Shown here in pieces: positions 3,173 to 59,399 of a DNA stretch of 64,000 nucleotides (positions within the stretch are counted from its first letter, which is position 1; every line of letters starts with the position of its first letter). The DNA lies in contig JAAXUC010000001.1 in NCBI GenBank assembly GCA_013336225.1, positions 99,949 through 163,948 on the forward strand. The letters run 5' to 3'. The DNA comes from Candidatus Moraniibacteriota bacterium (GTDB lineage: Bacteria > Patescibacteriota > Minisyncoccia > Moranbacterales > GWC2-37-73). The notes under the pieces are model-generated. The model worked only from the letters and a program-made list of their open reading frames with translations, was not told the DNA's origin and made no database searches. The position numbers were made by a program, and so were the translations under genes.

Positions 3173-3353
3173 TATCCTTTAATGTTTGCGGTGTTTTATT
3201 GATTTTTGATTTAAATTTAGCGTCCAAATTTTTAATTTAGAATTTTTAATTTTTAATCAAATCAAAATGTTCTAATGATTAAATTTTGAAACATTGAAAA
3301 TTGAATCGAAATTCGAAATTCATAATTCGAAATTAAAATCTGAATTCAAAAAT

Positions 3354-26615: not shown

Positions 26616-26685
26616 ATGATTAATAATATGAAAGTGTTTTATTTTGATCATGTTTAATATGCGGTTCTGGGAATAGAAGAAAACC

Positions 26686-26800
26686 GTTTTTGTTTCACCT
26701 GTTTTCTCTCGAGAGCACATTCGCAGCCGAAATTCATGGATGCTCACTCGGACCCCACTGTCGTTCGCTACGGCTTCAAGAGAAAACAGGCTCACAAAAA
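26686..26800 (+). repeat. About 115-nt palindromic element, copy 1 of 4 (conserved core GAGAGCAC..GCAGCCGAAATyyATGGCTGC..CTCACTCGGACC..CGCTACGGCTTCAAGA inside a 24-27 bp outer stem)
   Basis: Near-identical cores at 26686-26800, 52597-52715, 54410-54527 (reverse orientation) and 59271-59388; the outer arms are inverted repeats that differ between copies but stay complementary. Confidence 0.7.
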
Positions 26801-26947
26801 CTATATGTCGAGTATGATCTTATTGGTTGATAAAAATCGGAATGTGTTATATCGTGGATGGAAAGTAATATGATAGTTTGACGTAGTAACTTAAGTACCT
26901 CAAAAGGGGAAGCTTTTTGCGTTTATGAATAAATAATTGAAATTTTT

Positions 26948-29848
26948 ATGGAAAATAATAGGATAATCATCAAAGGTGCGCGAGAGCACAATTTGAAAAA
27001 TATTGATCTAGAGTTGCCCCGAGACAAATTTATTGTCTTTACGGGTCTTTCAGGCTCTGGAAAATCAACTTTGGCGTTTGATACGATTTTTGCCGAAGGG
27101 CAAAGGAGATATTTGGAAAGTTTGTCGAGTTATGCGCGGCAGTTTTTGGGGCAAATGGACAAGCCTGATGTTGACTATATTGAAGGACTTTCACCAGCCA
27201 TTTCGATTGACCAAAAATCAACTTCGCACAATCCGCGCTCAACAGTTGGAACAGTGACGGAGGTGCATGATTATTTGCGACTGCTGTATGCGAAAATTGG
27301 AATTCCTCATTGCAGTGTTTGCAATCGTGAAATTTCCAAGCTTTCCACGGATGAAATTGTGGATAGGATTTTGGAGATGGGAGAAAAAAACAAATCGCAA
27401 GCAATTGAGATTTCTTCGCCGATTGTCAGGGAAAGAAAAGGGGAATATTTAGCACTGCTGGATGAAATGTGGAAGAAGGGATTTTCTGAGGCGCTGGTGA
27501 ATGGAAAACTTATTCGCCTGGAAGATTTTAAGGAAATAAAATTGGAGCGTTACAAAAAGCATAGTATCGATATTATTGTTGATAAAATTGAGGTTAATGA
27601 AGAAAATCTTTCTAGAATTTTTGAAGGAGTGGAGAAAGCGCTGCGACTTTCAAAGGGGATTGTGAAAGTGAAATGCGTGCAAGAAGCTAAGGGTCAAAAG
27701 CTAAAAGCTAAAAGCTCAGACTCATTTGAGGTTGAGCAGATTTTCAATCAGAATTTGTCATGTCCGATTCATGATGTGGAATTTCCTGAAATGGAGCCGC
27801 GACTTTTTTCTTTCAATTCTCCCTATGGCGCTTGCGAAGCTTGTGAAGGCTTGGGGCTTAAAAAGGAAATTGATCCTTTGCGCGTGATGCCAGACTTAAA
27901 CAAAACCATTGGCGAGGGAGGTATCATGCCATGGAGCTTCAAACCGAACAATTATCAAGGCACAGTGCTGAAAGCGGTGGCCGCATATTATAATATTCAA
28001 GACAACAAGCGCCTGCGAGATCTGTCGAAAGATAAGCTGGATATTTTGATGTATGGCACAGAGGATGAGGATTTAATCAAGGTTTCATATCATTTCAAAA
28101 GCGGTAGTGGGCATTATAATGTGCGCTGGAAAGGCGTGGTGGCATGGCTACAGGAAAGATATCGCACCACAACTTCAGATGCTGTGCGCACGGATATTGA
28201 AAAATATATGTCGCAAAAACCTTGCTCTGCTTGCAAAGGTAGTCGCTATAAGAGTGATGTGCTTTTGGTGAGCGTGGGCGAAAAGAATATCTATGAAATT
28301 TCGACGCTGAGTATTTGGCAAGGCATTGATTTTTTCAAGAATTTGAAATTGACACATCGCGAGGATTTGATTGCGGGCAGGATTTTAAAGGAAATCATTG
28401 CGCGCATGGTTTTTTTGAACAATGTTGGTTTGGATTATCTGACTTTGGGCAGAGCAGCTTATTCTCTTTCAGGCGGAGAATCGCAACGCATTCGCTTGGC
28501 TTCGCAAATCGGATCGCAATTGGTGGGCGTGCTGTATATCTTAGATGAACCATCCATTGGACTTCATGCGCGTGATAATGCCAAACTCATTGAAACCCTT
28601 AAGCATCTGCAAAAGATCGGGAACACTTTGATCGTGATCGAGCATGATGAAGAGATGATGCGCGCTGCTGATTGGTTGGTGGATATTGGACCAGGAGCAG
28701 GCAAACATGGCGGCGAAGTGGTGGCTGAAGGCTGTCCTGAGGATGTGATCAATAACCCAAAATCGCTGACTGGAAAATATTTGCGTCATGAACTGGAAAT
28801 TGAGGTTCCAAATTTTCGTAGGCAAATAAAAAGAAAAAGAAGCATCACAGTGCGTGGAGCCAGTGAACATAATCTTAAAAATGTGACAGTGGAATTTCCA
28901 CTAAAAGTTTTCACCTGCGTGACTGGAGTTTCTGGCTCTGGAAAATCAACTTTGGTTGAAGAAACTTTGTATAAAGCGTTGGCCAATAAGTTGCATCGCG
29001 CCCTGGATGTGCCAGCCAGGCATAATGAAATTATCGGCATTGAAAATATCAACAAGGTGATCATGATCGATCAATCTCCAATTGGTCGCACGCCGCGCAG
29101 CAATCCTGCAACATACACAGGATTATTCACGCACATCCGAGAACTTTTTGCGCAAACCAAAGATGCCAAAATGCGCGGCTATGGGCCAGGCAGATTTTCA
29201 TTCAATGTGGCAGGTGGGCGCTGTGACAACTGCAGTGGTGAGGGATATCTTAAAATTGAAATGCAATTCATGCCTGATGTGTATTTGCCATGCGATGTTT
29301 GCAAAAGCAAACGTTACAACAGTGAGACACTGCAAGTTAAATATAAAGGAAAAAATATTTCACAGGTATTGGCCATGACAGTTTCAGAAGGAGTTGAATT
29401 TTTTGGAGCATTTTCCAAGATTCATGAACCGCTGAAAGTCTTGGAAGAAGTTGGCCTTGGCTATATTGAGTTGGGACAAAGTGCCACCACTCTTTCTGGC
29501 GGCGAAGCGCAGCGCATCAAGCTCGCCTCTGAGCTTTCAAGGCGCGCCACTGGTGACACTTTATACATCTTGGATGAACCAACCACTGGACTTCATTTTG
29601 ATGACATTAAAAAATTGTTGGTAGTGCTTAATCGCTTGGTTGATGCTGGAAACACAGTGGTGGTGATTGAGCATAATATGGATGTGATAAAAACAGCTGA
29701 TTGGATTATTGATATGGGGCCAGAAGGTGGCGACGGTGGCGGAAAAGTTGTGGTGACTGGCCCACCAGAGGAAATCATTAAATATTATAAAGAAAGTCAC
29801 ACGGCTAAATATTTGCGACAAGTTTTGAAACCGAAAAGCCTAACTTAA
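26948..29848 (+). CDS. uvrA: Excinuclease ABC subunit A
   Basis: 966 aa; two ABC ATPase modules (GLSGSGKST twice, LSGGE signature twice) and Zn-finger Cys pairs; contains an in-frame AAGCTAAAAGCT repeat (27688-27715). Confidence 0.95.
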
Positions 29849-32379: not shown

Positions 32380-35172
32380 ATGGCTTCAAAAAAAATAGCA
32401 TCATCCAATAACAATGAAATCGTAATCAAGGGTGCGCGCGTGAACAATCTTAAGAATATTGATGTGAACATCCCGCGAGATAAATTCGTGGTGATCACTG
32501 GACTTTCAGGCTCAGGAAAATCTTCTTTGGCATTCGATACTATTTACGCGGAAGGCAATCGTCGCTATATGGAGGGACTTTCTTCATACGCTCGCAACTT
32601 TTTGGATCCATCAGTGAAGCCTGACGTGGACAAAATTGAAAATCTTTCGCCGCCAATTTCAATTGATCAAAAAAGTATTTCACGTTCGCCGCGCTCAACG
32701 GTGGGAACATTAACGGAAGTTTATGACTATTTGCGCATCATGTATGCAAAAGTCGGAATTTTGCATTGTCCTGAGTGTGGGACTTCCATGCAAAAAAGAA
32801 GCAATCAAGAAATCTTGGATGAAATTTTGACTTTTTCTCATCACACTCAAATTGCAATCTTGGCAAAGCCGAAAGAAGCTGCGGTTGGCAAGGAGCTTTT
32901 AAAGCACATTGCACAAATGGGATATGCCCGCGTGCGTTTCAATGGAAAAATGTTCACCGTGGCAGAAGCCATGATGCTTGAAGAAAATGAAATTGAAACT
33001 GATGTTGAGATGGTTATTGACCGAGTTATTTTGGACAAGAAAAAACCTGATACAGAAAGAATGTTGGATAGTGTGGAAACTGCCATGAAAATCGGTGGAA
33101 ATTCAATGAAAATTTTGTTCGACAATGTGGAAGAGCGCGGATATAATCAGGATTTCTTTTGCAGTGAGTGTGGAGTGAAAATAAAAGAGGTGACGCCAAG
33201 ACACTTTTCTTTTAATAGTCCTGAAGGAGCATGTGATACTTGCGCTGGTTTGGGTTACACCTTGAAAGTAAATGAGGAATTGATCATCCCTAATAAAAAT
33301 CTCTCTTTAATGGAGGGTGCCATTCAACCCTGGAGCAAATCTGGCGGAAAAATAAACGGGCAAAGTGCCGCGCTTTTGACTTTGAAAAATGTGGCCAAGA
33401 AATATAAATTTTCCATGAATGTACCAGTAAAGAAATTCACTGCGGTGCAACTGGGAATTGTTTTGTATGGCAATGAGGGATTTGAAGGTGTGATTCCTGC
33501 TCTTGAGAAAAAATATCAAGAAACGAAATCTGATTATGTGCGCAGTGAAATTGAAAAATATATGACCGCGCATACTTGTCCGACTTGCGATGGCAAGCGT
33601 CTCAAAAAAGAATTCTTGGCAGTAGAAGTTCAGGGAAAAACAATTGACATGATGGTTTCAATGAGCGTCACGCATTTGCGAGAACTGTTTGAAGATGCTG
33701 AAAATTGGACACAAACTCAGCAAGAAAAAAGCATTGCCAAATCAATTGTGCGAGAAATTTTGCAACGCTTGGGTGCACTGGAAAATGTTGGTTTGGAATA
33801 TTTGAATTTGGGTCGCTCTGCTCAGACAATTTCTGGAGGAGAAGCGCAGCGCATTCGCTTGGCTGCACAACTCAATTCTCAATTGATGGGAATTGTCTAT
33901 GTTTTGGATGAGCCATCAATCGGGCTTCATAGTAGAGATACGGAAAAACTTATCAACACGATTAAGGCCCTGCAGGGCGTTGGAAATTCACTAATTGTGG
34001 TTGAGCATGATGAAAGCATCATCAGAGCTGCTGATTGGATTGTGGATATGGGTCCTGGTGCTGGAGAAGAAGGTGGAATTGTGGTTTTTGAAGGTGACTA
34101 CAAAAAATTAATGAAGTCTAAAAATCTTACCGCTCAGTATATTTCAAAAAAGAAAAAAGTTTCTGACAAGAAAAAAAATCGCACTGGCAGTGGAAAATTT
34201 ATTGAAATTATTGGAGCTGAAGAAAACAACTTGAAAAAAATCGACGTTTCAATTCCATTGGATAAATTTGTGGTTATTTGTGGTGTTTCAGGCAGTGGGA
34301 AATCAACATTAGTAAAGAATATTTTAGCTAAAGCACTATCTCGGCATTTTTATAATACCAAGGATTTGCCAGGCAAGCACACTAAAATCAAAGGATTTGA
34401 ACATGTTAAAAAAGTCATCAGCATCAATCAAAATCCAATCGGACGCACGCCGCGCTCAAATGCTGCAACATATACTGGAGTGTTTTCTCATATTCGCGAC
34501 TTGTTTGCCGGAGTGGAAGAAGCTAAGAATAGGAACTATACTGCCAGCCGCTTCAGTTTCAATATGAAAGGCGGACGCTGCGAAGTTTGTCAGGGAGAAG
34601 GATCAAAAAAAATTGAAATGCATTTGTTGCCTGACATGTATGTGAAATGCGAAGCTTGTGACGGAACCAGGTTTGGCAAGAAAACTTTAGAGATTGAATA
34701 TAAAGGATTTAATGTGGCACAGATTCTGGATATGGATGTGCGTTTGGCACTACGCTTTTTTGCTCGTCACCCACTCATTGCTGAAAAACTTAAGACCATG
34801 GAGGATGTGGGCTTGGGTTATCTCAAGCTTGGACAAAGTGCAACTAATCTTTCTGGTGGAGAGGCGCAGCGCATCAAACTGGCCACCGAGCTTGCACGCA
34901 AATCAACTGGAAACACTTTATATATTCTGGATGAACCAACGGCGGGGCTGCACTTTGATGATATCCGAAAATTGCTTTTAGTTTTAAATGCATTGGTTGA
35001 CAAGGGAAACACGGTGATTGTGGTTGAACACAATCTGGATGTGATTCGCGACGCTGATCATGTCATTGAGCTTGGGCCAGATGGCGGTGAGCTTGGAGGA
35101 CATCTGACTTTCGCTGGCACACCAGACCAATTGAAGAAGGATAAGAAGAGTTGGACGGCAAAATACCTCTAA
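32380..35172 (+). CDS. Second full-length UvrA paralog
   Basis: 930 aa with the same domain order as uvrA at 26948 (GLSGSGKSS, two LSGGE signatures, Zn-finger cysteines), but clearly diverged sequence. Confidence 0.9.
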
Positions 35173-35174
35173 AG

Positions 35175-35300
35175 AGAAATTTTGAATTATGAATTTCGAA
35201 TTTCGAATAAAATCTGAATGATTGAACGTTTAAATCATTAAAAATTGAGAAATTAGAAATTGGTTCAAAATTAAAAATTGGAAATTCAAAATTAAAGAAA
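35175..35300. repeat. AT-rich GAAATT/GAATTT low-complexity repeat block (family also at 3230-3353 and, in-frame, in recG 60420-60560)
   Basis: gaatttcgaatttcgaataaaatctgaat...aaattggaaattcaaaattaaag shares aaaatctgaat and cgaaatt units with the 3230-3353 block. Confidence 0.5.
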
Positions 35301-35753
35301 AAGAAGCATGATGGCTATTGCGGAAAATAATATGTCATTGGCTGCATTTCGCATTGTCCAGGCTCTCTCTGGTGACCCATCAGCAAAGCGACCATGCACG
35401 AATTGATGAAATTGATAGATTTTTTTGAGGAATTTGAAATTAAGCTTCCAATAGAGTACTGTTAATAGGTCAGGAAACATGGAAATGATGGTGCCAGTGA
35501 TCATGGAGATTGAAATTGCTGGAGATATATTTTTGGCATAAATGGCAAGAAGGATTATTGCTCCGCCAATAAAAAGATCCAGGGTTACTTTCCAGGTCGT
35601 ATCTTTGAATGTTGATTGCTTGTTTAAATATTCTCCATGGCGAAAAATGTCCAAAGTATAGTGCAGGGGAATTAAGATGAGAATTTGCATGGCGGGATTG
35701 GACACGTATTTTCCAAGAGCGGCTCCGACGAGAGCGTGAGTGGTAAGAATCAT
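35292..35753 (-). CDS. Putative membrane-bound metal-dependent hydrolase (DUF457/YdjM-like)
   Basis: 153 aa, 4 TM segments, N-terminal MILTTHALVGAAL...H..D pattern resembling YdjM-family proteins; assignment tentative. Confidence 0.35.
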   Translation of the reverse strand: MILTTHALVGAALGKYVSNPAMQILILIPLHYTLDIFRHGEYLNKQSTFKDTTWKVTLDLFIGGAIILLAIYAKNISPAISISMITGTIISMFPDLLTVLYWKLNFKFLKKIYQFHQFVHGRFADGSPERAWTMRNAANDILFSAIAIMLLFL

Positions 35754-37007: not shown

Positions 37008-37754
37008 ATGAAATCAACAAAAGTTTCCGCTCAAGGCGGATCCGCCTTGAGCGGAAAAGAAAAAATAAAAAAAATCACATATTGGGCGGGTGTTTCCGCA
37101 ATTGGAATTGTGGTGGGCTTTTCACTGCAATTCACCAAGGCCTGGACTGAACCAACTGCTCCTGCACCAGGTGGAAATGTGGGCGCACCGATAACCACAG
37201 GCCTTCTTGATCAAGTTAAGAATGGCGGCTTGGCAGTTTCCAATGGAATCGTGACTTCATTTTTAGGTGTGAATGGAAACGTCACATTTTCTGGGGTTGG
37301 AAATGGGATGGTGTTTCCAGATGGAACAAAGCAGACAACTGCTGCAGCAGCACAAGCTGGTGACAATTTGGGGAATCACACTGCAACTGCACCTCTTAAT
37401 ATGAACGGAAAATCAATCAATGGTGTTGATGTTGTTAGTGCTACAACTTTGAATGCAACTCAAATGACAATTAATTACAACGGTAAAATTTTGGCTTCAC
37501 AATTAGTCAATATTAATGGGAGTGAGGATGTTTATAGCACATCGGTGGAAATGAGCTGGGCACTTGGCAATACCACTTCTGATACTTGTAATGGAGATTT
37601 TACTACTAATTACGGATGTGCACTTTCTGATAATAAGACATGTATTGACACAAGCACAACGTATGTTCTTGTGAAAGGAGAGCCTTCTCCTAGATATTGG
37701 AGAAGAAACATTACTTGTAAGGTTGCAACGGCTCTTAATTTTGTTCAGCAATAA
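37008..37754 (+). CDS. Secreted/surface protein, paralog family A (conserved N-terminal anchor and C-terminal Cys-rich module, variable middle)
   Basis: Shares WAGVSAIGIVVGFSLQFTKAWTEPT...GNVGAPI...VSNGIVTS...FPDGTKQTTAA and the C-terminal TCNGD...C...TC pattern with the 40084 gene. Confidence 0.5.
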   Translation: MKSTKVSAQGGSALSGKEKIKKITYWAGVSAIGIVVGFSLQFTKAWTEPTAPAPGGNVGAPITTGLLDQVKNGGLAVSNGIVTSFLGVNGNVTFSGVGNGMVFPDGTKQTTAAAAQAGDNLGNHTATAPLNMNGKSINGVDVVSATTLNATQMTINYNGKILASQLVNINGSEDVYSTSVEMSWALGNTTSDTCNGDFTTNYGCALSDNKTCIDTSTTYVLVKGEPSPRYWRRNITCKVATALNFVQQ

Positions 37755-40001: not shown

Positions 40002-40083
40002 TTTTTTGTACAACTATGAAAAATGTTGTAAAATATTAGTAAGAATATTTCTCAGTTAAAAACTTGGTAATAAATAATAAATA

Positions 40084-40671
40084 ATGAATCTTAAATCAAC
40101 CAACATGAAAACAAAACTAAAGGAAGCAATCTATTGGGTGGGGGTTTCCGCAATTGGAATCGTAATCGGCTTCTCACTGCAATTCACCAAAGCTTGGTCT
40201 GAGCCAACAACTTCTGCTCCAAATGGAAACGTGGGCGCACCAATTAACACCAGCATCATTGATCAAGTCAAAAGCGGAGGAATGGTGGTATCTAATGGAA
40301 TTGTAACTTCAGTTCTCGGAGCCACCAAGATAACGGCTGGCACTGGAGGAGTCGCTTTTCCAGACGGAACAGTTCAAACCACTGCTTCTGCCCCAAGTCT
40401 TGGTGTATGTAATAAATCATACGTAAATGGATCGGAGGATAAATATTCCTCATGGATCGGTGTACGTTTCTGGGCACCTACTTTTACATGGACAGGGACG
40501 CGTTTGGATACTTGCAATGGTGATGTTGGCAATGCATACACCTGTAGTTTGACGGAGACGCGAACATGCAATGATGTCCAAGGATTCACTTATTACAAAG
40601 ATTATTGGAGGAGTTATAATTATCGGACTGTTACATGCGTGAAGCAATATGTTTGCAGTTACACAGAGTGA
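40084..40671 (+). CDS. Secreted/surface protein, paralog family A (second copy)
   Basis: IYWVGVSAIGIVIGFSLQFTKAWSEPT...GNVGAPI...VSNGIVTS...FPDGTVQTTAS and C-terminal DTCNGD..YTC..TRTC..C..C. Confidence 0.5.
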   Translation: MNLKSTNMKTKLKEAIYWVGVSAIGIVIGFSLQFTKAWSEPTTSAPNGNVGAPINTSIIDQVKSGGMVVSNGIVTSVLGATKITAGTGGVAFPDGTVQTTASAPSLGVCNKSYVNGSEDKYSSWIGVRFWAPTFTWTGTRLDTCNGDVGNAYTCSLTETRTCNDVQGFTYYKDYWRSYNYRTVTCVKQYVCSYTE

Positions 40672-41401: not shown

Positions 41402-41486
41402 ATGGATAAAAATATTGTAAAATATTGGTAAGAATATTTCTCAGTTAAAAATTTAGAAATAAATAATAAATTTTCAATCAACCAAT

Positions 41487-42506
41487 ATGCAAACAAAAAA
41501 ACAAAATTTAATTAAATTTGGGGCGACAATTGTGGTTTTTTGTGCGGTTTTTGCTGCGGCAAGCGCCACCAGGGCTGGCATTGGCAGCAGTGTCACTGGT
41601 TGGCTCTGGGGCGGAAGTGATGATGGCGCTGGAAATTCAAGTGGCGTGGGCTGGATCAGTATGAATGACACCAACTTGGGAACAGGTGCAACATATGGTG
41701 TTAATGTTCCACTTACTGATGGTGATCTGGTTGGCTCTGGTTGGAGTGAGAATCTTGGATATCTTGCCTTTGACAATTCTGGTGGATATCTTAATGGATG
41801 TCCTGATGGAAACTGCATAGCCAAGCGCGTGGGTAGCTCCTTGCAAGGCTGGGCAAGATTTGTGGAAATTGCCCAGGCTAGCGCAGTTGGAAATTCAGGT
41901 GGATGGCTGGGTTGGATAAAATTGAGCGGTGTTGATCAAGGCGGTTCAGCTTATGGTGTGACGATTGAAAGCGATGGCAAATTAAATGGCAGTGCTTGGT
42001 CAGATGAGCTTGGTTGGATTAAATTTCAAGGTGTGACAACAGGCGCTACTCCCGCTGCCTATGGCGCTGTCATGCCAGCTTTGCCAAATGTTGCACTGAC
42101 TGCAATTCCTGGGATAATAAATGTTGATACTAATCCAAATTGGTCAACATCTGGCGTACCTATAGTTTTAACATGGAGCGGTGTGACCAATGCAACAACC
42201 TGCACAAAAAGTTGGGATGTTGCCAATCCAATTCCGGCAGCAAATGGAACAGAAACGGTTTCACAAAATACACAACTAGTGACCTATAGTATTACTTGCA
42301 CTGGTCCTGGTGGGTCAAAAACTGCAACAGCAATGCCTGTTTATTCTGCTTGTTATGCAAAAGAATGCGCTGTCGGCAAGTGTGTTCCATCAGGAACGCC
42401 TACTCCTGCAATGAGTTCTGCAACATGCACACCACTTAACACATGTTCAATTGACAATGATTGTAAGGCTAGAGAAGTTACTGATTGGAAAGAAGTGGCA
42501 CCTTGA
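41487..42506 (+). CDS. Secreted repeat protein (GxxWSxxLGWIxF repeats)
   Basis: Signal peptide; repeats GSGWSENLGYLAFD / GGWLGWIKLSG / GSAWSDELGWIKFQG; Cys-rich C-terminus. Confidence 0.4.
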   Translation: MQTKKQNLIKFGATIVVFCAVFAAASATRAGIGSSVTGWLWGGSDDGAGNSSGVGWISMNDTNLGTGATYGVNVPLTDGDLVGSGWSENLGYLAFDNSGGYLNGCPDGNCIAKRVGSSLQGWARFVEIAQASAVGNSGGWLGWIKLSGVDQGGSAYGVTIESDGKLNGSAWSDELGWIKFQGVTTGATPAAYGAVMPALPNVALTAIPGIINVDTNPNWSTSGVPIVLTWSGVTNATTCTKSWDVANPIPAANGTETVSQNTQLVTYSITCTGPGGSKTATAMPVYSACYAKECAVGKCVPSGTPTPAMSSATCTPLNTCSIDNDCKAREVTDWKEVAP

Positions 42507-42560: not shown

Positions 42561-42617
42561 AAAATCCCGCGAAAGCGGGATTTTCTATTGCCCAAAAGCA
42601 TTTTATGTGGGTATAAT
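42561..42617 (+). promoter_or_regulatory. Terminator hairpin followed by the argS promoter (TTGCCC-17-TATAAT), with the -10 box only 6 nt from the ATG (leaderless-type)
   Basis: AAAATCCCGCGAAAGCGGGATTTTC hairpin; TTGCCC aaaagcattttatgtgg GTATAAT gaagat ATG. Confidence 0.45.
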
Positions 42618-42623
42618 GAAGAT

Positions 42624-44288
42624 ATGAAAGAATCAATTCAAAAACTTATATCCAAAGCTGTTTTAGCGGCAAAAAAGGCTCATTCTTGGGCTGATTTTGA
42701 GATGCCAGAAATAACAGTGGATTATCCCAAGAGTGAACAATTTGGCGATTATACGACCAACATTGCCCTTATTTTGGCTAAAAAAGCTGGGAAAAGCCCG
42801 ATGGAAACGGCAAATTATCTCAAAGAGATTATTTGTCATCCTGAACTTGTTTCAGGATCCCGCAAGGTTACTAATGGCGAGCAAAGCACAGAGATCCTGA
42901 AACAAGTTCAGGATGACATGGCGGGGATTTTTGAAAAAATTGAAGTGGCGGCGCCGGGATATTTGAATTTCCATCTTTCCCAGCAATATTTGCAAGATTT
43001 GACGAAAAAAATCAATATTGAAAAAAACAGTTTTGGAAATTCGCAGATTGGAAAAGATGTTAAAATCAATAATGAATTTATTTCCGCCAATCCGACTGGG
43101 CCGCTGCATCTTGGAAATGGTCGCGGTGGATTTTATGGCGACTCACTTACGAGGGTTTTTAGAAAAGCTGGATTTGAAGTTACTAATGAATATTATGTGA
43201 ATGATGCTGGCGGACAAGTTGAAAAACTTGGACACAGTGTGCTTAAAGATGAGGAAGCTGCCTACATAGGAGAATATATCGATGACTTGAATGTGAAATA
43301 TGCAGAGCTTGGCGATGTGCGAAAAGTTGGTCAACTGGCGGCCAAGGAAGTTTTGGAAAATATCATCAAGAAAACTGCCAAGGAAAAAATGCAGATTGTT
43401 TTTGACGTGTGGATGAGCGAACAAAAATTGAGCGATGATGGATATGATCAGCGTGCAATTGAAATGCTCAAAGAAAAAAAAATGACCTATGAATCAGAAG
43501 GAGCACTGTGGCTGCGAACAACTGATTTTGGCGATGATAAAGACAGGGTGCTGATCAAGAAAGACGGTAAAAATGCCTATATGGCTGGCGATTGTGGATA
43601 TATGCTGAATAAGATTGAAAGAGGCTATTCTCGCTTGGTGATGGGGCTGGGAGCTGATCATCACGGTTATGTTTCGCGGCTGAAGGCAGTGGCTTTGGCG
43701 CTTGGTTTTGCAGGAGATTTTCGAATCATCATTTCTCAGATGGTGCGGTTGGTGAAAGATGGAAAGGAAGCTCGCATGAGCAAACGCGCTGGCAACGTAA
43801 TTAATTTGGATGATCTGATTGATGAGATTGGGCATGATGTGACTAGATTTTTCTTCTTGATGTATTCTCCGGACACGCACATGAATTTTGATTTAGGATT
43901 GGCAAAAGAACGCAGCGCCAAGAATCCAGTTTTCTATGTGCAATATGCGCATGCACGCATTTGCAGTATCCTGGAAAAAGCTGAGCATGGAACAGAAAAT
44001 GCAAAACTCGAATTATTGGTTCATGAAAAAGAATTGAGCTTAATCAGGGAGCTCAACAAATTTCCAGAATTGATTGAAACAATTGCTGAAAATTATGAAG
44101 TGCATAAACTGCCACAATATGCCATGAAATTGGCTGACAAATTCCATTCTTTTTATGATGCTTGTCGGGTGATTGACGAAGAAAATCCGCAGCTGACAAA
44201 TGCTAGACTTTTCTTGATAAATGCTGTTAGAATAGTGCTAGCTGAGACCCTGGGCCTTATTGGGGTGGATGCGCCAGAAAAAATGTAA
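42624..44288 (+). CDS. argS: Arginyl-tRNA synthetase
   Basis: N-terminal Arg_tRNA_synt_N domain, a HIGH-like region (ANPTGPLHLGNGRGG), a KMSKS-like block (RMSKRAG), and the anticodon-binding DALR domain. Carries an in-frame 83-bp palindromic insertion at 42835-42917. Confidence 0.9.
   Translation: MKESIQKLISKAVLAAKKAHSWADFEMPEITVDYPKSEQFGDYTTNIALILAKKAGKSPMETANYLKEIICHPELVSGSRKVTNGEQSTEILKQVQDDMAGIFEKIEVAAPGYLNFHLSQQYLQDLTKKINIEKNSFGNSQIGKDVKINNEFISANPTGPLHLGNGRGGFYGDSLTRVFRKAGFEVTNEYYVNDAGGQVEKLGHSVLKDEEAAYIGEYIDDLNVKYAELGDVRKVGQLAAKEVLENIIKKTAKEKMQIVFDVWMSEQKLSDDGYDQRAIEMLKEKKMTYESEGALWLRTTDFGDDKDRVLIKKDGKNAYMAGDCGYMLNKIERGYSRLVMGLGADHHGYVSRLKAVALALGFAGDFRIIISQMVRLVKDGKEARMSKRAGNVINLDDLIDEIGHDVTRFFFLMYSPDTHMNFDLGLAKERSAKNPVFYVQYAHARICSILEKAEHGTENAKLELLVHEKELSLIRELNKFPELIETIAENYEVHKLPQYAMKLADKFHSFYDACRVIDEENPQLTNARLFLINAVRIVLAETLGLIGVDAPEKM
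42835..42917 (+). mobile_element. 83-bp miniature palindromic element with perfect 25-bp terminal inverted repeats, inserted in-frame in argS
   Basis: GTCATCCTGAACTTGTTTCAGGATC at 42835-42859 and its exact reverse complement at 42893-42917 flank a 33-bp spacer. Each arm is itself a hairpin (CCTGAA-cttgt-TTCAGG). It corresponds to an extra roughly 28 aa relative to canonical ArgS. Confidence 0.75.
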
Positions 44289-45623: not shown

Positions 45624-45691
45624 GAATAAGATAGGAATATAAAAGCATTGAAGGAGTCATCACTCCTGAGCTGCGAAAAGAAACGACTGCT

Positions 45692-45747
45692 GTCGTCCTG
45701 AACTTGTTTCAGGATCTACGTAGATTCCGGATCAAGTCCGGAATGAC
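45692..45747. repeat. 56-bp near-perfect palindrome related to the argS element (left arm GTCGTCCTGAACTTGTTTCAGGATC, centre TACGTA, right arm GATTCCGGATCAAGTCCGGAATGAC)
   Basis: Left arm differs from the argS copy at 1 position. The right arm carries several substitutions that preserve the hairpin (CCGGA-tcaag-TCCGG). Confidence 0.6.
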
Positions 45748-45874
45748 ATGCAATCAGAGTAGAATTCGTCGGGTAAGCCCGTTATAGCCAAAAAACAAGG
45801 GTAGAATGTATAATGTAGAATGTATGACGTATGAAAATACATAATACATAATACTAAATACATGATACTGAAGC

Positions 45875-50514: not shown

Positions 50515-52428
50515 ATGCCGCTCAATAATCTTAATCGGGAATTGTATAGTCAGCGTGAAAATGAAATTTCAAGTCGAAAGCATGAGCAGAGTGCTTATGA
50601 TCCGATGATTAATAATGCAAATGGATCTGTCAGTCCTTTTGATGAGCAGCAGCGCTGGAATCAGCCTCAAAAAGGTCTTTCTCCTGAGCAAAAAAAGAAA
50701 TTATGGATTGGCATTTCAATTTTCTTGTTTGTTGCACTTGTGATTGGAGGAATATTTTTCTATCAATGGTGGGCTAAAAATGCTTTTCATCAGGATCGTG
50801 TCAGCATTTCTTTTGAAGGTCCACTTTCAGCTGATAGCACGCAGCCAACAAAATATATCATTCACTACACTAATAACAATCGTGTGACTCTTAATAATGC
50901 TGAAATTCAACTCAGTTATCCCGAAAATTTTCAACCAACTGAGAATTTGAATTTGAAATATTTAAGTCCCTCTGCGAGCAAGATGTTTATTGGAGATGTG
51001 AAGCCCATGGCAAGCGGGCAAGTTGAATTGAATGGAGTCTTTTATGCTCCTAAAGATTATCCGGTTTATTTACGCGGCGAAATTCATTTCATTCCTTCTA
51101 ATGGAACGGAGGAACTTTTTATGGATAAGCAAATTGCGATCAATATAACGGCGGCACCAGTCGTGCTAAGCGTGGTCGCACCACAACAAGCAGTCAGTGG
51201 AGATGGATTGGAATATGTGGTCGATTACAAAAATCTTGATCAAAAACGCATCAGTGACGTGCAAATTCGTATTGATTTTCCCCAGGGATTTGAAATGAGT
51301 TCTGCCACACCTAGGCCATCAGAAAAAGAGTCTTATTGGTATATCGGAAACCTGGAGCCAAATCAAGGCGGAAAAATAAGCATTACTGGGAAAATTAAAG
51401 GCAGTAGCAATGAAGGCAAAAATATCATTGTTTCTCTTGGTCATATTGGTGGAGATAATCAGTTTGTGGTTTTCAATAAACAAGAATTGGCGACGCGCAT
51501 TGTTTCTCCTGTCTTGACCGTGGCACAAAAATTGGATGGCAAAGACACTGGAGTGGCCAGTGCTGGCGAGCTTTTGAAATATACGGTGACATATCAAAAC
51601 ACGGGAACAATCGGGCTTCGCGATGCCATTGTCACAGCAGAAATCAAGGGTAATGTTTTGGATTTTTCCAAAATAAGCGTGCAAAACGGCTCATATGACA
51701 GCGCAAAAAATAGCATCATCTGGAAAGCTTCGGATGTTCCAGCATTGGCCAATATAAATCCTGGTGCTGGCGGCAGCGTGCAATTCAGCATTCCAGTGAA
51801 AGCGGTTATTCCAGTTGAAAGCAAGCTTGATAAGAATTTCGCCATTTCTTCAATTGCAAAGATTGACAGCCCTGACATTCCCACGCCCCTTGATTCCAAT
51901 AAGATAATTGGCAGTAATAAGCTTGAAGTGAGGCTTGCTTCAAAAGTTCTCTTTGAAACGAAGGGATATTATACGGAAGAAAAAATTAAGAATTCTGGAC
52001 CGATTCCTTTGGAATCAGGCAAAGAGACGACATTTACACTGCATTGGCAAATCACTAATGTCTCCAATGATCTCACTGAAGCTTTGGTTGTTTCAGCATT
52101 GCCGTCTGGAGTGCGTTTCACTAATAAAATTTATCCATCCAATGAGAAGATTTCATATAATGAAAGAACAAACCAGCTTATTTGGAATGCTGGTGATGTC
52201 CCTGCAGGCGCTGGTGTGCTTGTGCCGCCGCGTGAAGTTATTTTTCAGGTAGGTGTCACTCCGCAAACAAATCAAGTTGGAAACATGCTGGATTTGCTTA
52301 ATAAATCCATTCTCACTGCCAAGGATGATTTTGTGGGACAAGGTGTAACACTGGATGGTGGAGCTAAAAACACAACTCTATATGAAGATCCTGCTATTGG
52401 ATATACTAATGGCAAAGTGGCTAAGTAA
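50515..52428 (+). CDS. Hypothetical membrane-anchored protein with large extracytoplasmic beta-rich repeat domains
   Basis: Long ORF (start at 50467 or 50515), one TM helix, repeated NxGTxxLRDAxVTAEI-like segments; family not recognised with confidence. Confidence 0.4.
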   Translation: MPLNNLNRELYSQRENEISSRKHEQSAYDPMINNANGSVSPFDEQQRWNQPQKGLSPEQKKKLWIGISIFLFVALVIGGIFFYQWWAKNAFHQDRVSISFEGPLSADSTQPTKYIIHYTNNNRVTLNNAEIQLSYPENFQPTENLNLKYLSPSASKMFIGDVKPMASGQVELNGVFYAPKDYPVYLRGEIHFIPSNGTEELFMDKQIAINITAAPVVLSVVAPQQAVSGDGLEYVVDYKNLDQKRISDVQIRIDFPQGFEMSSATPRPSEKESYWYIGNLEPNQGGKISITGKIKGSSNEGKNIIVSLGHIGGDNQFVVFNKQELATRIVSPVLTVAQKLDGKDTGVASAGELLKYTVTYQNTGTIGLRDAIVTAEIKGNVLDFSKISVQNGSYDSAKNSIIWKASDVPALANINPGAGGSVQFSIPVKAVIPVESKLDKNFAISSIAKIDSPDIPTPLDSNKIIGSNKLEVRLASKVLFETKGYYTEEKIKNSGPIPLESGKETTFTLHWQITNVSNDLTEALVVSALPSGVRFTNKIYPSNEKISYNERTNQLIWNAGDVPAGAGVLVPPREVIFQVGVTPQTNQVGNMLDLLNKSILTAKDDFVGQGVTLDGGAKNTTLYEDPAIGYTNGKVAK

Positions 52429-52444
52429 AAAAACAGAACAGCTG

Positions 52445-52510
52445 TCGGTCATTAGTCATCCGTCATCAAAAAATTCATCAAGCCTTTGAGGCGCGATGAC
52501 AGATGACGGA
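52445..52510 (+). terminator. Long GTCAT-repeat hairpin after the 50515 gene
   Basis: GTCGGTCATTAGTCATCCGTCATC ... GATGACAGATGACGGATGAC inverted repeat. The GTCAT-repeat family also occurs at 14265-14320 and in-frame in uvrC at 31558-31590. Confidence 0.45.
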
Positions 52511-52596
52511 TGACTTTTAATTATACGAATTAATATATTTATTCATAACAAGTATGGAATCATACGCAATATATGGTTTTGAAAAAGGTAAGTAAT

Positions 52597-52715
52597 GTTT
52601 TTGATTTGCCTATTTCCTCTTGAGAGCACGCTTCGCAGCCGAAATCTATGGCTGCTCACTCGGACCTCGCTGTCGCTCGCTACGGCTTCAAGAGAAAATA
52701 GGCAAATCAAAAACC
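52597..52715 (+). repeat. About 115-nt palindromic element, copy 2 (outer stem sequence differs from copy 1 but remains complementary)
   Basis: GTTTTTGATTTGCCTATTTCCTCTTGA...core...TCAAGAGAAAATAGGCAAATCAAAAAC. Confidence 0.7.
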
Positions 52716-52764
52716 ACATATTGCGCTTGATCCTAAGTATGCTGGACTTAATTGAAATTTGGTT

Positions 52765-52770
52765 TATAAT
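52765..52770 (+). promoter_or_regulatory. TATAAT -10 box 8 nt upstream of the tgt ATG (leaderless-type promoter)
   Basis: GGTTTATAATgggacgatATG. Confidence 0.4.
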
Positions 52771-52778
52771 GGGACGAT

Positions 52779-53897
52779 ATGTTTACATTGATTTCACAGC
52801 AACAAAAGAAGCGCATTGGATTGCTTAAAACTAAAAACGGTGTAATTAATACGCCGTTTTTCATGCCGATTGCAACTAAGGGCGCGGTAAAAAATGTTTC
52901 TCCTGAAGATTTGCTGGCTTTGGGCGCGGAAATTGTGCTGGGAAACACTTATCATCTTTGGCTCAGGCCAGGAGATGATCTTATTGCGCGGGCAGGTGGA
53001 CTCCATAAATTCATGCATTGGAGTGGACCAATTTTGACTGATTCTGGTGGTTATCAAGTTTTTTCACTTGGCGCGCGAGCCAAAGAAAAATATGGGACCA
53101 ATGGCGTCAAACTTAGTGAGCAAGGAGTTGATTTTGCTGATCCCTTAAATGGCAGCCGACATTTCATGTCGCCGGAAAAATCAATTGACATTCAACTTAA
53201 TCTTGGTTCTGACATGATCATGGTGCTGGATGAATGTCCGCCATATCCATGCTCACACAGTGCTGCCAAAAAATCACTGGAACTCACCACGCGTTGGGCT
53301 GCTCGCTGCCTGACTTATTTTCAAGAAAAAACCAAGCATCTTTCCAGGGAAAACCGTCCCTTGCTTTTCGCGATTGTGCAGGGAAGTGTCTATGAAGATT
53401 TGCGAAAAGAATCAGCCAAGCAATTGACTGCCATGGATTTCGATGGTTTTGCAATTGGCGGTGTGGCAGTGGGCGAACCTAGAAAACATCTCTATGAAAT
53501 TTTGCAGTGGGTGGTGCCCTTTTTGCCTGCTGACAAACCGCGCTATTTGATGGGACTTGGAAAACCTGAAGAATTAGTGGCAGCTGTTGAGGCTGGAATG
53601 GATATGTTTGATTGTGTCATTCCCACGAGAGAAGGTAGGCACGGAAGACTTTTTGTTTGGAAAGAGGGGAACAATTTGAGTGGAGATTTTTATGAAACAA
53701 TAAATATCAATAATGAACAATTCAGGGAAGACTTCACACCGATAGACTCAAATTGTGATTGCTATGCTTGCAAAAACTTCACCAAAGCTTATCTCAATCA
53801 TTTGCTCAGAACAAATGAGCCATTCTTTCTGAAGCTTGCTTCAGTGCATAATTTGAATTTCTATCTGAAATTGATGAAATTGCTCGGCGAAAAATGA
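52779..53897 (+). CDS. tgt: Queuine tRNA-ribosyltransferase
   Basis: GVINTPFFMPIATKGAVK, LGNTYHL, DSGGYQ, and Zn site CDCYAC...H. Confidence 0.9.
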   Translation: MFTLISQQQKKRIGLLKTKNGVINTPFFMPIATKGAVKNVSPEDLLALGAEIVLGNTYHLWLRPGDDLIARAGGLHKFMHWSGPILTDSGGYQVFSLGARAKEKYGTNGVKLSEQGVDFADPLNGSRHFMSPEKSIDIQLNLGSDMIMVLDECPPYPCSHSAAKKSLELTTRWAARCLTYFQEKTKHLSRENRPLLFAIVQGSVYEDLRKESAKQLTAMDFDGFAIGGVAVGEPRKHLYEILQWVVPFLPADKPRYLMGLGKPEELVAAVEAGMDMFDCVIPTREGRHGRLFVWKEGNNLSGDFYETININNEQFREDFTPIDSNCDCYACKNFTKAYLNHLLRTNEPFFLKLASVHNLNFYLKLMKLLGEK

Positions 53898-54000
53898 AAG
53901 AAAATCAAATAGCAATACGTATCATATCAATAGGTGCGTAAAATTATAAAAAGCGGAAATTTTTTAGGCTCAGGCCTATTGCATATTTCTAACAAATGAC

Positions 54001-54321
54001 ATGGCAAAAAAAGAAAAAAAAGTCATAAAACAATCAACTGAAGCTGGTAAGCAGTTTTTGGAAGTGAGCAAGTTTTTCAAGATTGTGGCTGATGAAAATC
54101 GCTTGAAGATCTTGGTTTTATTGGAAGGCAGCAGCATGAATGTCACCGACATTCATAGTAAATTGAAGCTTCCGCAAAATCTGACTTCACATCACATTTC
54201 TAAGTTGAAAACTTTGGATCTTCTGCTGGAAAAACGCGAAGGGACTTTCAGGAATTACAGCGTTAATACTAAGAAGCTCAAGGAATACAATAAAATGTGT
54301 AAAGAGCTGTTTAAGATCTAG
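54001..54321 (+). CDS. ArsR/SmtB-family transcriptional regulator
   Basis: ENRLKILVLL...MNVTDIHSKLKLPQNLTSHHISKLKTLDLL wHTH. Confidence 0.7.
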   Translation: MAKKEKKVIKQSTEAGKQFLEVSKFFKIVADENRLKILVLLEGSSMNVTDIHSKLKLPQNLTSHHISKLKTLDLLLEKREGTFRNYSVNTKKLKEYNKMCKELFKI

Positions 54322-54347
54322 TATTTTTAGTTGCAATTGCATTTGAA

Positions 54348-54379
54348 AAAGCCCAGCGCAAGCTGCGGCTTTTTTTGAT
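54348..54379 (+). terminator. Terminator after the ArsR-like gene
   Basis: AAAAAGCCCAGCGCAAGCTGCGGCTTTTTTTG. Confidence 0.6.
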
Positions 54380-54409
54380 TATGTATAATACTGGATCATG
54401 TGCAATATT

Positions 54410-54527
54410 TTTTTTGTTTCACCTGTTTTTTCTTGAAGCCGTAGCGAACGACAGTGAGGTCCGAGTGAGCAGCCATGAATTTCGGCTGCGAAACGTGCTC
54501 TCAAGAGAAAACAGGTGAAACAAAAAA
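54410..54527 (-). repeat. About 115-nt palindromic element, copy 3 (reverse orientation)
   Basis: Reverse complement matches the copy 1/2 core (GAGAGCACGTTTCGCAGCCGAAATTCATGGCTGCTCACTCGGACCTCACTGTCGTTCGCTACGGCTTCAAGA). Confidence 0.7.
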
Positions 54528-54777
54528 ATCCTTCTTTTGCTCCTGGAATATTATATTGCGAGTGACCCACAATACCTGGTTCTTCTGATTTACTCATCTC
54601 CTTTTTTGGCACATTTTTGACTGAAAATCATAGTCAAAAAACTTACTCGCTCTCGCTGCGTAGGTCCTAAAAAGAAAATAAGCAAATCAGAAGGCATCAA
54701 TCTTGCTTTAAGTGTATTTGCAAAAAAAGCTTATTTTAGGTATTATTGATTCATAAGTCTTATGGATATTACATCTT

Positions 54778-57600: not shown

Positions 57601-57709
57601 TCATTACAACAAGTCTTTCAACAAAAACTCCAGAATGATTCTGGAGTTTTTGTTTTAAGTATTTCTATTGCCATGTGCAATATATAATTCTTTATGTTAA
57701 GTTTTTTTG

Positions 57710-59092
57710 CTACCCACGGATGATGGCCAGCAGCTCATCTCGTTTTTCCTCCATCAATTTATTATTTTTTGCTTCTACATTTAGTCGTATGAGTGGTTCA
57801 GTGTTTGAGCCTCGCACATTGAATCTCCAATTGTTCAAGTCATTAGTAGTGTCGATAAAATCAAGAGAGACGCCATCTTGCAGATCGCTTTTGGATGACT
57901 GTGCGATGTATTTGAATCTTATTTTCTCAATGACTGCTGAAACGTCAGCAACTTCATTATTGATTTCTCCACTGACATGATAAGTGTCCCAAAACATTTC
58001 CTGAATGATTTGAGAAAAAGGTTTTTCCTGCTTGGAAAGGAATTCCAAGATCATCACAAGTGGTATCATGCCACAATCACAGAAAAAATAATCACGGAAA
58101 TAATAATGCGCACTCATTTCACCTCCAAAAACAGCATTCTCTTGGCGCATACGCTCCTTGATGAAAGCGTGTCCTGCTTTGGTTGGCACATTGGTTCCTC
58201 CATTTTGACTGGCGATATCTTCAATTGCCCAGGTTAGGCGAGTGTCATGCAGAATTTTTTCGCCGTTTTTTCTGTCCAGAAAAATCTTGGCCAGCAGCGC
58301 TGTGATGAAATAACCCTCAATGAATTCCCCCTTTTCGGTGAAGAAGAAGCAGCGATCAGCATCGGCATCCCAAGCAACTCCAAAATCAGCGCCTGTTTCC
58401 ACCACTAGTTTGGAAATTTCTTCCCGATTGGTCGGGATGAGCGGATCTGGTCTGCCCTTGGGAAAATTTCCATCCGGTTCGTAATTTATTTTTACTATAT
58501 CAAGCTTGGTTCCTTCGAGAATTTTTGTCAGGGCGCGTCCACCGACTCCGAAATTGGGATTGGCCACGATTTTGAATTTTTTGAATTTGGAAAAGTCCGC
58601 AAAGGATTGAATTTTTTCGGCGTAATCGTTGAGGATATCTTTTTTCTCAACCAAGCTTTCATTGATTTCGCCATCCAGCACAACCGGATCGACGTCCAAG
58701 GCGAACGCCATATCGCGGATGTCGTAGATTCCGGTGTCGCCGGAAATCGGCTTGGACTGTTCACGCACGATCTTCATGCCATTGTATTCTCCTGGATTGT
58801 GTGAGGCAGTCAAGGTTATTCCTCCAGCATAACCATAATTGGCCACAGAGAAATATAACATGTCAGTTGAAATTTCTCCCACATCAATGACTCTGATTCC
58901 CTGATCGGTGATGGCCTTGATGGCTGCTTTTTTCAGGGCAGGTGAGGAAAGGCGAACGTCGCAGCCGACAACCAATTCTGTCGGTTTGAGAAATTGGCAC
59001 AAGGAAGTGGCAATCTTGTAGACATCAAGCTCATTGATCTCGGTGGGATAAATTCCGCGGATGTCATAAGCTTTGAAAATATTTTTATTCAT
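57710..59092 (-). CDS. Phosphomannomutase/phosphoglucomutase (alpha-D-phosphohexomutase)
   Basis: Active-site TASHNPGEYNGMKI and metal-binding DADADR. Confidence 0.8.
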   Translation of the reverse strand: MNKNIFKAYDIRGIYPTEINELDVYKIATSLCQFLKPTELVVGCDVRLSSPALKKAAIKAITDQGIRVIDVGEISTDMLYFSVANYGYAGGITLTASHNPGEYNGMKIVREQSKPISGDTGIYDIRDMAFALDVDPVVLDGEINESLVEKKDILNDYAEKIQSFADFSKFKKFKIVANPNFGVGGRALTKILEGTKLDIVKINYEPDGNFPKGRPDPLIPTNREEISKLVVETGADFGVAWDADADRCFFFTEKGEFIEGYFITALLAKIFLDRKNGEKILHDTRLTWAIEDIASQNGGTNVPTKAGHAFIKERMRQENAVFGGEMSAHYYFRDYFFCDCGMIPLVMILEFLSKQEKPFSQIIQEMFWDTYHVSGEINNEVADVSAVIEKIRFKYIAQSSKSDLQDGVSLDFIDTTNDLNNWRFNVRGSNTEPLIRLNVEAKNNKLMEEKRDELLAIIRG

Positions 59093-59270
59093 ATAGTCTT
59101 CTTTTAATTCTAAAGTCTAATTCTTAAGGTCTAAAACAAGTCTAAATTCTAATTTATAATTTTACACTTTAGATTTTTAAAGTTAGTCTTTAGATTTATG
59201 GTTTTTATTGGCAAATAAGATACTTGTGTATTATAACCTTTTTTGTTTTTTGCCTCAAGCGCAATGTGCG

Positions 59271-59388
59271 ATTTTTGTTTCACCTGCTTTCTCTTGAGAG
59301 CACGCTTCACAGCTGAAATCTATGGCTGTTCGCTCGGACCTCGCTGTCGCTCGCTACGGCTTCAAGAAAAAACAGGCGAAACAAAAAT
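59271..59388 (+). repeat. About 115-nt palindromic element, copy 4 (carries a compensatory double change in the internal hairpin: GCAGCC/GGCTGC to ACAGCT/GGCTGT)
   Basis: ATTTTTGTTTCACCTGCTTTCTCTTGAGAGCACGCTTCACAGCTGAAATCTATGGCTGTTCGCTCGGACC...CGCTACGGCTTCAAGAAAAAACAGGCGAAACAAAAATG. Confidence 0.7.
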
Positions 59389-59399
59389 GCTTCTTTCTT

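Follow-up and report, generated by a model that had tools for sequence, protein, structure and literature searches.

The palindrome of about 115 nt that recurs at four sites in the window (the whole 64,000-nt stretch of DNA analysed here) is the distal, inner hairpin of a longer mobile DNA unit that carries no gene. The full unit measures 161-203 bp (12 composite copies), and probably represents a new family of foldback-type MITEs, which are non-autonomous and would be moved in trans by an 8-bp-cutting DDE transposase. We favor this reading because the units have terminal inverted repeats (TIRs), are flanked by a target duplication of fixed length, can be nested and truncated, and are dispersed between genes. 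They are also noncoding and short, well below the limit of about 300-500 bp for MITEs, and they are present in one genome and absent from the corresponding spacers of its relatives. A reading made from the letters of the window only (the sequence-only reading) had offered "structured RNA or MITE". The second term is supported, albeit with other boundaries, as the palindrome is the interior of the 161-203-bp unit, whereas the first term is not established.

Architecture of the element and its copies in the window

A 39-nt core pattern matched the window at 26743, 52655, 54431 (minus strand) and 59329 with no more than three mismatches, whereas zero matches were expected. These are the sites of the four copies listed in the sequence-only reading, here called c1 to c4. 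The mean column identity in an alignment of the four is 82%, and the folding energies of all copies are far below those of shuffled sequences (z of -4.3 to -8.3). As had been stated, all copies are intergenic and each lies beneath a mechanical ORF. The long stem said to enclose the core is found in copies 2-4, where arms of 27-28 nt separated by 64 nt are 89-96% complementary, whereas that of copy 1 is partly broken. The swap reported for the hairpin of copy 4, ACAGCT/GGCTGT in place of GCAGCC/GGCTGC, was confirmed.

The description of copy 2 requires correction. Its arm had been called completely different, yet the actual difference is five of the 15 quoted positions, four of which are compensated. 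Nor is its complementarity perfect: the 3' arm that was quoted, GGAAATAGGCAAATC, is absent from the window, the true reading is GAAAATAGGCAAATC, and one C.A mismatch is left. Two further copies, one decayed and the other partial, have the same arm variant (AAATCA) as copy 2, so that the variant is a trait of a subfamily. Both were found by a covariance-model search of the kind suggested in the sequence-only reading, with a model built from the four copies. The decayed fifth copy (c5) has its match at 54579-54696, next to copy 3. The partial sixth copy is on a short-read contig from the same organism, at the contig end (L021 1-50), which falls ~2.2 kb to the left of the window. The density is at least six copies in ~66 kb.

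The ends originally given for the element are those of the inner hairpin only, and the unit reaches 30-45 bp further on each side. The outermost layer is an imperfect terminal inverted repeat of ~20 bp that starts with GG and has the consensus GGRTCAT.CGCAAT.T.TGG (GGATCAAGCGCAATATGTGG in the window, GGGTCATGCGCAATTTATGGTT in relatives). It is followed by a spacer of 15-25 nt present on one side only, then by the 27-bp inner inverted repeat and, at the center, by a G+C-rich core of ~64 nt that contains a small conserved hairpin. The outer layer appears in the window as a 16-nt motif, ATATTGCGCTTGATCC, located immediately 3' of copies 1-3, with its reverse complement ~20 nt 5' of the copies. 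Elsewhere in the window this motif has a single match, with three mismatches, at 18728, which is apparently due to chance. The outer motifs pair in c1-c3 and thereby lengthen the hairpin. Both ends of c1-c3, and of the majority of JGI copies, carry the outer repeat, which is imperfect (for example, each end of c2 matches the consensus at 16 of 20 positions). The homologues in JGI contigs have the same order of layers: outer inverted repeat, one-sided spacer, 27-bp inner repeat and core. Outer repeats were found only beside inner modules; a lone partial match at 57671-57689 has no partner.

The first full element, c1, occupies 26646-26819 on the minus strand (174 bp), the strand given being the better-folding one, called R. 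It consists of the outer repeat GATCATACTCGACAT / TTAAACATGATC, a spacer and an inner module at 26684-26804. Its flanking repeats are weak, with five of seven positions matching between CCAATAA (26820-26826) and AAAATAA (26639-26645). Element c2 (52557-52733, minus strand, 177 bp) has the TIR GGATCAAGCGCAATATG / ATATATTGCGTATGATTC, a spacer at 52575-52594 and an inner module at 52595-52716, and scores 131.5 bits with covariance model R2. Its target-site duplication, CATACTTG (52549-52556, R strand) and CATACTTA (52734-52741), matches at seven of eight positions. The small inner hairpin, P2, is at 52635-52655 in this copy and reads GCAGCC-GAAATCTAT-GGCTGC on the plus strand; its stem covaries in the family and its loop sequence is conserved.

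Element c3 (54393-54568, plus strand, 176 bp) has the TIR GGATCATGTGCAATA / ATATTGCGAGTGACCC, an inner module at 54408-54529 and a spacer at 54530-54552, and its flanking repeats, ATAATACT (54385-54392) and ACAATACC (54569-54576), match at six of eight positions. The adjoining c5 (54577-54730, minus strand) is an old, AT-drifted copy that scores 43.8 bits with R1 and 92.8 bits with R2. Its inner module (54579-54696, GC 0.36) is followed by a spacer and a degenerate outer repeat that extends to ~54730, the boundaries of the outer parts being read by eye. The c5 outer repeat was split by insertion of c3 and its other half is at 54376-54384. The core of c5 is inverted relative to its outer frame when compared with c1-c3. 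Element c4 (59252-59390, minus strand) is truncated. Its inner module (59269-59390) directly abuts a single outer TIR, CACATTGCGCTTGAGGC (59252-59268), and it has neither a spacer nor a recognizable second TIR. It starts 9 nt past the recG stop codon. The possibility that c4 supplies the stop codon or C-terminus of recG was rejected, as the alignment of RecG with its orthologue in locus L047 runs to the very end of the C-terminus.

Target duplications, relatives and known systems

The sequence-only reading had proposed a search for target-site duplications, and direct repeats of ~8 bp were indeed found, not at the ends of the 115-nt palindrome, but outside the outer TIRs. These repeats are A+T-rich and directly adjoin the outer repeat. 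With boundary shifts of up to 2 nt allowed, the best 8-mer match between the two flanks of the same copy averaged 6.83 of 8 positions in the 12 composite copies. Mismatched flank pairs averaged 4.78 of 8, with a maximum of 7 in 132 pairs, and none of 20,000 permutations reached the observed mean. Five copies have a perfect 8-bp match, those of loci L032 (CAAAATTA), L034, L036, L037 (CAATTAAT) and L042 (AAAAATTT), whereas the repeats are weak or absent in c1, L027, L028 and the L047 copy.

Nesting and truncation are also seen. Element c3 together with its duplication lies inside the outer repeat of c5, and removal of c3 restores a recognizable, AT-drifted repeat (by eye). In addition to the truncated c4, the L035 copy appears to be truncated. 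Short-read contigs from the same organism end inside copies, which is the expected behavior of a dispersed repeat. Syntenic spacers of relatives lack the element, these relatives being too diverged for the exact empty site to be aligned. The DUF11-tgt spacer is 350 nt here compared with 44-180 nt in relatives, where the covariance model found no match in L023-L025, nor at that spacer in L045 and L047. Likewise, 307 nt separate pgm and recG here, compared with 131 nt in L047, where the spacer is element-free.

Pfam scans of 28 window ORFs detected no transposase or recombinase, in agreement with the earlier remark that no transposase is nearby, and in a search of the window and of ~320 kb of related loci no autonomous IS bounded by these ends turned up. 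The putative DDE-type transposase, which would make 8-bp staggered cuts, is presumably encoded elsewhere in the genome, outside the window.

The family is present in several uncultured groundwater Moranbacteria genomes. A pattern consisting of the two arms with a free interior matched 19 loci in JGI metagenome contigs, ~12 of them distinct. Covariance model R2 recovered all of these loci plus a third subfamily with other arms and the L047 variant. The arm-only pattern and the model together put the number of distinct homologues in metagenome contigs of other Moranbacteria at ~15. The diverged subfamilies (L035 9653-9775, L027 2534-2648, L037 2814-2939 and L047 2746-2868) differ from the window subfamily in their arms (TTTCGAAACATTTC..., GCTATCC/GGATAGC) and in the P2 stem, which is longer (UUUUGGAU/AUCCAAAA). 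They also contain another small hairpin, AGUCG-GCGACAG-CGACU or GAUAC-GGGA-GUAUC, which has no counterpart in the window subfamily. The strict core pattern found nothing in 185,579 species genomes, a looser core pattern found nothing in the JGI metagenomes, and viral contigs contained no copies. An 18-base core pattern gave 19 matches in G+C-rich genomes, all of which were due to chance, and none of which scored with the model. The element may move between co-occurring Moranbacteria.

When the translated element was compared with 5.8 billion proteins, the sole match was the window's own annotated ORF. The spurious ORF over copy 3 appears among deposited sequences as hypothetical protein HGA36_00725, annotated on a 165,923-nt contig of a Candidatus Moranbacteria MAG. 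A peptide gene was considered and rejected: the reading frame shifts between the window and JGI copies while the nucleotides are conserved (partly by eye).

Correia elements (CREE/NEMIS) of Neisseria, ERIC/IRU of enterobacteria and RUP of Streptococcus pneumoniae are the classical bacterial MITEs, and their copies can donate promoter hexamers. Like these, the Moranbacteria element is in the range of 100-200 bp, lacks an ORF, has TIRs, occurs as dispersed intergenic copies and folds into a long hairpin. It differs from them in its unrelated repeat sequences, its two-layer inverted repeat (outer 20 bp plus inner 27 bp), an interior that is more conserved than the ends, and its CPR host. Moreover, the IS630-like Correia and RUP elements duplicate TA, whereas the Moranbacteria element duplicates ~8 bp of A+T-rich sequence such as CAATTAAT or AAAAATTT.

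Promoter-hexamer donation of the Correia type has a single candidate here, at c4. A promoter-like site at 59230-59258 on the minus strand (TTGAGG-17 nt-TATAAT, 10 of 12 matches) has its -35 hexamer in the c4 outer TIR and faces a phosphoglucomutase-family gene (57710-59092, minus strand). Thus, the c4 TIR and the TATAAT could possibly form a hybrid promoter to which the element donates the -35 box. The syntenic, element-free L047 locus has TTGAAC-17-TATAAT (by eye).

Target duplications of ~8 bp are made by the ISL3, IS1595 and IS256 families. The GG start and GCAA motif of the TIR loosely resemble what we take to be IS6-type ends. The IS6 family generates 8-bp direct repeats, includes two known MITEs and has short (14 bp), generally perfect terminal repeats (PMC7986276). 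The Moranbacteria element shares the 8-bp duplication with IS6. However, its TIRs are imperfect and ~20 bp long, and the search for an autonomous IS described above gave no parent.

The window genes are housekeeping and DNA repair genes: rpoBC-sized ORFs, lexA, ftsK, recA, uvrABC, ssb, recG, tgt and aminoacyl-tRNA synthetase genes. Two UvrA-sized paralogues (26948-29848 and 32380-35172) are separated by 2.5 kb that includes a uvrC-like gene. They have uvrB upstream and sit in a repair cluster (lexA, ftsK, recA, ssb, recG and recO).

Several other repeats were observed in this gene setting. A perfect 26-bp inverted repeat, TGTCATCCTGAACTTGTTTCAGGATC ... GATCCTGAAACAAGTTCAGGATGACA, at 42834-42918 is inside the arginyl-tRNA synthetase (ArgRS) ORF (42588-44288) and is translated in frame (CHPELVSGS...EILKQVQDD). 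In the syntenic ArgRS of the relative L025, this position is taken by a segment of the same length but of unrelated sequence (CHYGLDPESS...LDSRFHGND). By analogy with the Rickettsia palindromic elements, this site looks like a hotspot of in-frame palindromic-element insertions. A third copy of the ArgRS palindrome arm, plus a second palindrome, is found in the spacer before IleRS (45691-45748). A second intergenic repeat family, A+T-rich and composed of AATTTCGAATTTCGAAT-like units in direct and inverted orientation, is present at 3204-3338, 35178-35302 and 60436-60560. A 72-nt direct repeat (40019-40090 and 41408-41479, 89% identical) is immediately upstream of two neighboring ORFs of unknown function, 40084-40671 and 41487-42506, and is probably a shared promoter or leader. 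Finally, ORFs 37008-37754 and 40084-40671 share a 212-nt stretch that is 75% identical.

Conservation of the inner module and orientation of the core

Among the JGI copies, the inner modules share 97% identity on average, whereas the 40 nt on either side of them (the outer repeat and spacer, to which some adjoining DNA is added when the copy is shorter) share 54-61%, compared with 49% for shuffled 40-mers. Between genomes whose tgt genes are only 72% identical (at the nucleotide level, third positions being near saturation), the inner modules are 94-99% identical, with 99% in a comparison of two such genomes. Two orthologous insertion pairs, each from different populations, gave 98.1% identity in the inner module, 82-87% in the outer parts and 75-93% in the flanks. 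The differences within these pairs number 4 of 212 positions in the inner module and 24 of 151 in the outer parts (Fisher p = 9e-7). Neutral decay after insertion does not predict that the inner module is better conserved than the outer parts, and the conservation pattern is the reverse of that of a textbook MITE. Ectopic gene conversion among near-identical inner modules may homogenize old copies. A more radical view is that the inner module of 115-120 nt has a function as a single-strand structure, be it RNA or a hairpin of DNA, which machinery of the cell or of the element recognizes and which is kept near-invariant at dozens of sites. In its favor are an identity of 98-99% across Moranbacteria genomes in which synonymous sites of housekeeping genes are saturated, a conservation above that of the transposon ends at orthologous loci, and the repeated flipping of the core within the frame. 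We hold this to be a speculative and rather unlikely proposal.

The core is found in both orientations within collinear outer frames. This was seen in the window lineage and in the JGI lineage, at different loci, whereas the orthologous pairs L032/L033 and L029/L030 are concordant in core orientation. When the core is flipped, the terminal nucleotides of the arms stay with the frame (by eye), and therefore the arrangement fits inversion within the arms rather than insertion. Such flips would arise through recombination or template switching between the 27-bp arms.

The presence of both orientations in the two lineages could also be read as an inverton, in which a recombinase would act on the 27-bp arms and flip the core, thereby regulating neighboring genes. 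We consider this very improbable, as the two orthologous pairs come from different populations and yet have the same orientation, the 64-bp core contains no promoter-like site, and no recombinase is encoded in the window. Moreover, the arms covary, unlike a protein-binding site, which would be conserved in sequence, and the 8-bp duplications and nesting indicate transposition.

Pairing, strand and biological meaning

The sequence-only reading had argued that the stems covary, a claim borne out by the present data and strengthened by the homologues from other genomes. In an analysis of 20 sequences, paired cells amounted to 86% versus 79% in shuffles. Changes on both sides were found in 18 of 33 pairs, compared with 11.6 +/- 1.8 in shuffles (0/500) and 4-9 in controls with slid partners. 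In P2, all six pairs change on both sides: besides GCAGCC, the stem can be GCAATC/GATTGC, TTGGCC/GGCCAA, TTGACT/AGTCAA or TTTTGGAT/ATCCAAAA. The P2 loop is conserved (AUAGAUUUC-like on the reverse strand) and the stem is GCAGCC, GCAAUC, UUGGCC, UUGACU or UUUUGGAU according to subfamily. The partner always matches and therefore the pairing is under constraint. The stem covariation is genuine, and two single-stranded motifs, CGACAG and GCGUGC, are invariant.

From the distribution of these changes, which are mostly between subfamilies, the covariation points to selection on propagating lineages. In the foldback MITE reading, the inner hairpin would stay paired through compensatory change if only lineages with an intact foldback keep propagating, the hairpin acting as a cis element for mobilization on single-stranded or cruciform DNA. 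This step is less certain than the transposition step.

The inference from covariation to an RNA is not established. A comparison with Rfam, as the sequence-only reading had proposed, gave no family match. Nothing relevant was found at E values up to 10 over 52400-54700, and only two tRNAs reach threshold in the entire window. The best sub-threshold matches are generic long hairpins (Phe_leader at 36 bits versus a cut-off of 55, and plant and animal miRNA precursors). Hence, the element resembles Rfam structured RNAs in its covarying helices and conserved loop motifs, and differs from them in that no family reaches the gathering threshold. No conserved promoter or 3' U-tract is attached to the element. 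In front of c1, c2 and c3 the preceding gene ends in a canonical hairpin-plus-U terminator, and the next gene begins beyond the element. The copies sit after an intrinsic terminator and before the following promoter, and because of the terminators no transcription of c1-c3 is expected. From the sequence, an RNA role of the element is possible but unsupported. A hammerhead ribozyme, the criterion for which is a CUGANGA ... GAAA core around stem II, was examined and rejected. The reverse strand reads CCGAGUGAG-stem-CGAAGC, in which U4 is replaced and there is one extra base (by eye), no hammerhead model matched at E values up to 10, and neither c5 nor the JGI copies conserve the motif.

The same setting bears on whether the element is a REP-type transcription terminator or an mRNA-stabilizing hairpin and is selected as such. 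The hairpins are long, stable, intergenic and close to gene ends, as this explanation would have it. However, a T-run precedes the stem and an A-run follows it on both strands, which leaves no 3' U-tract, and the genes upstream of c1, c2 and c3 already have canonical terminators before the element. We find such a role scarcely credible.

The strand evidence is mixed. In the 27-bp stem, non-Watson-Crick columns are G.U on the reverse strand (C.A on the strand used in the sequence-only reading) in seven cases versus one. Two wobble cases in P2 favor the opposite strand, and the overall count of 8 versus 4 columns is not significant (p = 0.39). As support for an RNA, the G.U-versus-C.A test is at most suggestive, is contradicted in the inner hairpin and is given no weight here. 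The reverse strand folds better in every window copy. Where the flanking genes are co-directional, the better-folding strand is antisense to them at 12 independent sites versus 3 (window plus L026-L044), or 13 versus 3 (p = 0.02) when one orthologous duplicate is included, the overall p value being about 0.02-0.035. This orientation bias could be due to replication direction or to selection against the stronger hairpin in read-through mRNA.

These data allow an assessment of the proposal that the inner module is a host-level structured RNA, either a multicopy sRNA or a cis-acting mRNA element, which was spread or captured by the MITE and is under purifying selection. Such an RNA would account for an inner module that outlasts its own outer ends and flanks at orthologous sites, and that persists between diverged genomes. 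It would also account for the six covarying P2 pairs, the conserved loop, the invariant CGACAG and GCGUGC motifs, and the 7 versus 1 G.U columns on the strand that folds better. Against it stand the lack of an Rfam match and of a conserved promoter or terminator, together with the location of c1-c3 beyond terminators. The better-folding strand is antisense to co-directional genes (12 versus 3), the P2 wobbles favor the opposite strand (overall, 8 versus 4 columns, p = 0.39), and with at least six copies in ~66 kb the element is as dense as repeats typically are, unlike RNA genes. In addition, the second small core hairpin is not conserved in the window subfamily (by eye). On balance, we regard a host-level RNA as unlikely.

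A further alternative is that the inner module is a separate and younger element. REPINs, which Bertels and Rainey reportedly described in 2011, consist of two inverted repeats around a spacer and are mobilized by RAYT transposases. The hallmarks of REP-RAYT systems are the lack of a target duplication, a Y1 (RAYT) gene in the genome and REP hairpins of the 5' GTAG type. Like REPINs, the Moranbacteria element has a long hairpin, compensatory pairing, extragenic copies and unusual persistence across genomes. Unlike REPINs, which are Y1-dependent and lack TIRs, target duplications and an outer frame, it has 8-bp duplications, and no Y1_Tnp domain was found in the window ORFs. In this alternative, a REPIN or IS200-IS605-type element, a single-stranded DNA mover that makes no duplication, would have targeted the centers of old MITE frames in either orientation. 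Its appeal lies in the young, homogeneous inner modules within diverged outer frames, in the occurrence of both relative orientations in each lineage, and in the lack of a direct repeat around the inner module. The better folding of one strand and the gene-direction bias (p about 0.02-0.035), which is hence probably a replication-direction bias, are also accommodated, and the architecture of two inverted 27-nt repeats around a spacer resembles that of REPINs.

Against this alternative, in ~320 kb of sequence no empty outer frame or stand-alone outer-repeat pair was found, nor was any inner module found away from a frame, and each spacer motif adjoins an inner module. In flipped copies the last nucleotides of the arms remain part of the frame (by eye), the orthologous pairs are concordant, and the window has no Y1 or RAYT gene. 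We consider a REPIN-like inner element quite improbable.

The CPR/Patescibacteria have densely packed genomes of ~1 Mb that are usually described as poor in mobile DNA. A literature search on MITEs in CPR and on intergenic hairpin repeats of Moranbacteria found no MITE family described for the group. The foldback MITE family of Moranbacteria is previously undescribed; it is an ordinary kind of element with an odd pattern of conservation. In practical terms, the family breaks short-read assemblies at each copy and seeds spurious "hypothetical proteins" in deposited MAGs. If the inner module were indeed a functional single-strand structure, the family would be a structured element dispersed by a MITE, and its role in the ultra-small genomes of CPR bacteria would be at host level or akin to homing. 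The conserved interior with diverging ends and the recurrent inversion of the core are features that simple MITE decay does not predict. The copies therefore provide a natural test set for asking whether a foldback can be a unit of selection, whether gene conversion homogenizes such elements, or whether a structured RNA is hitch-hiking on them.
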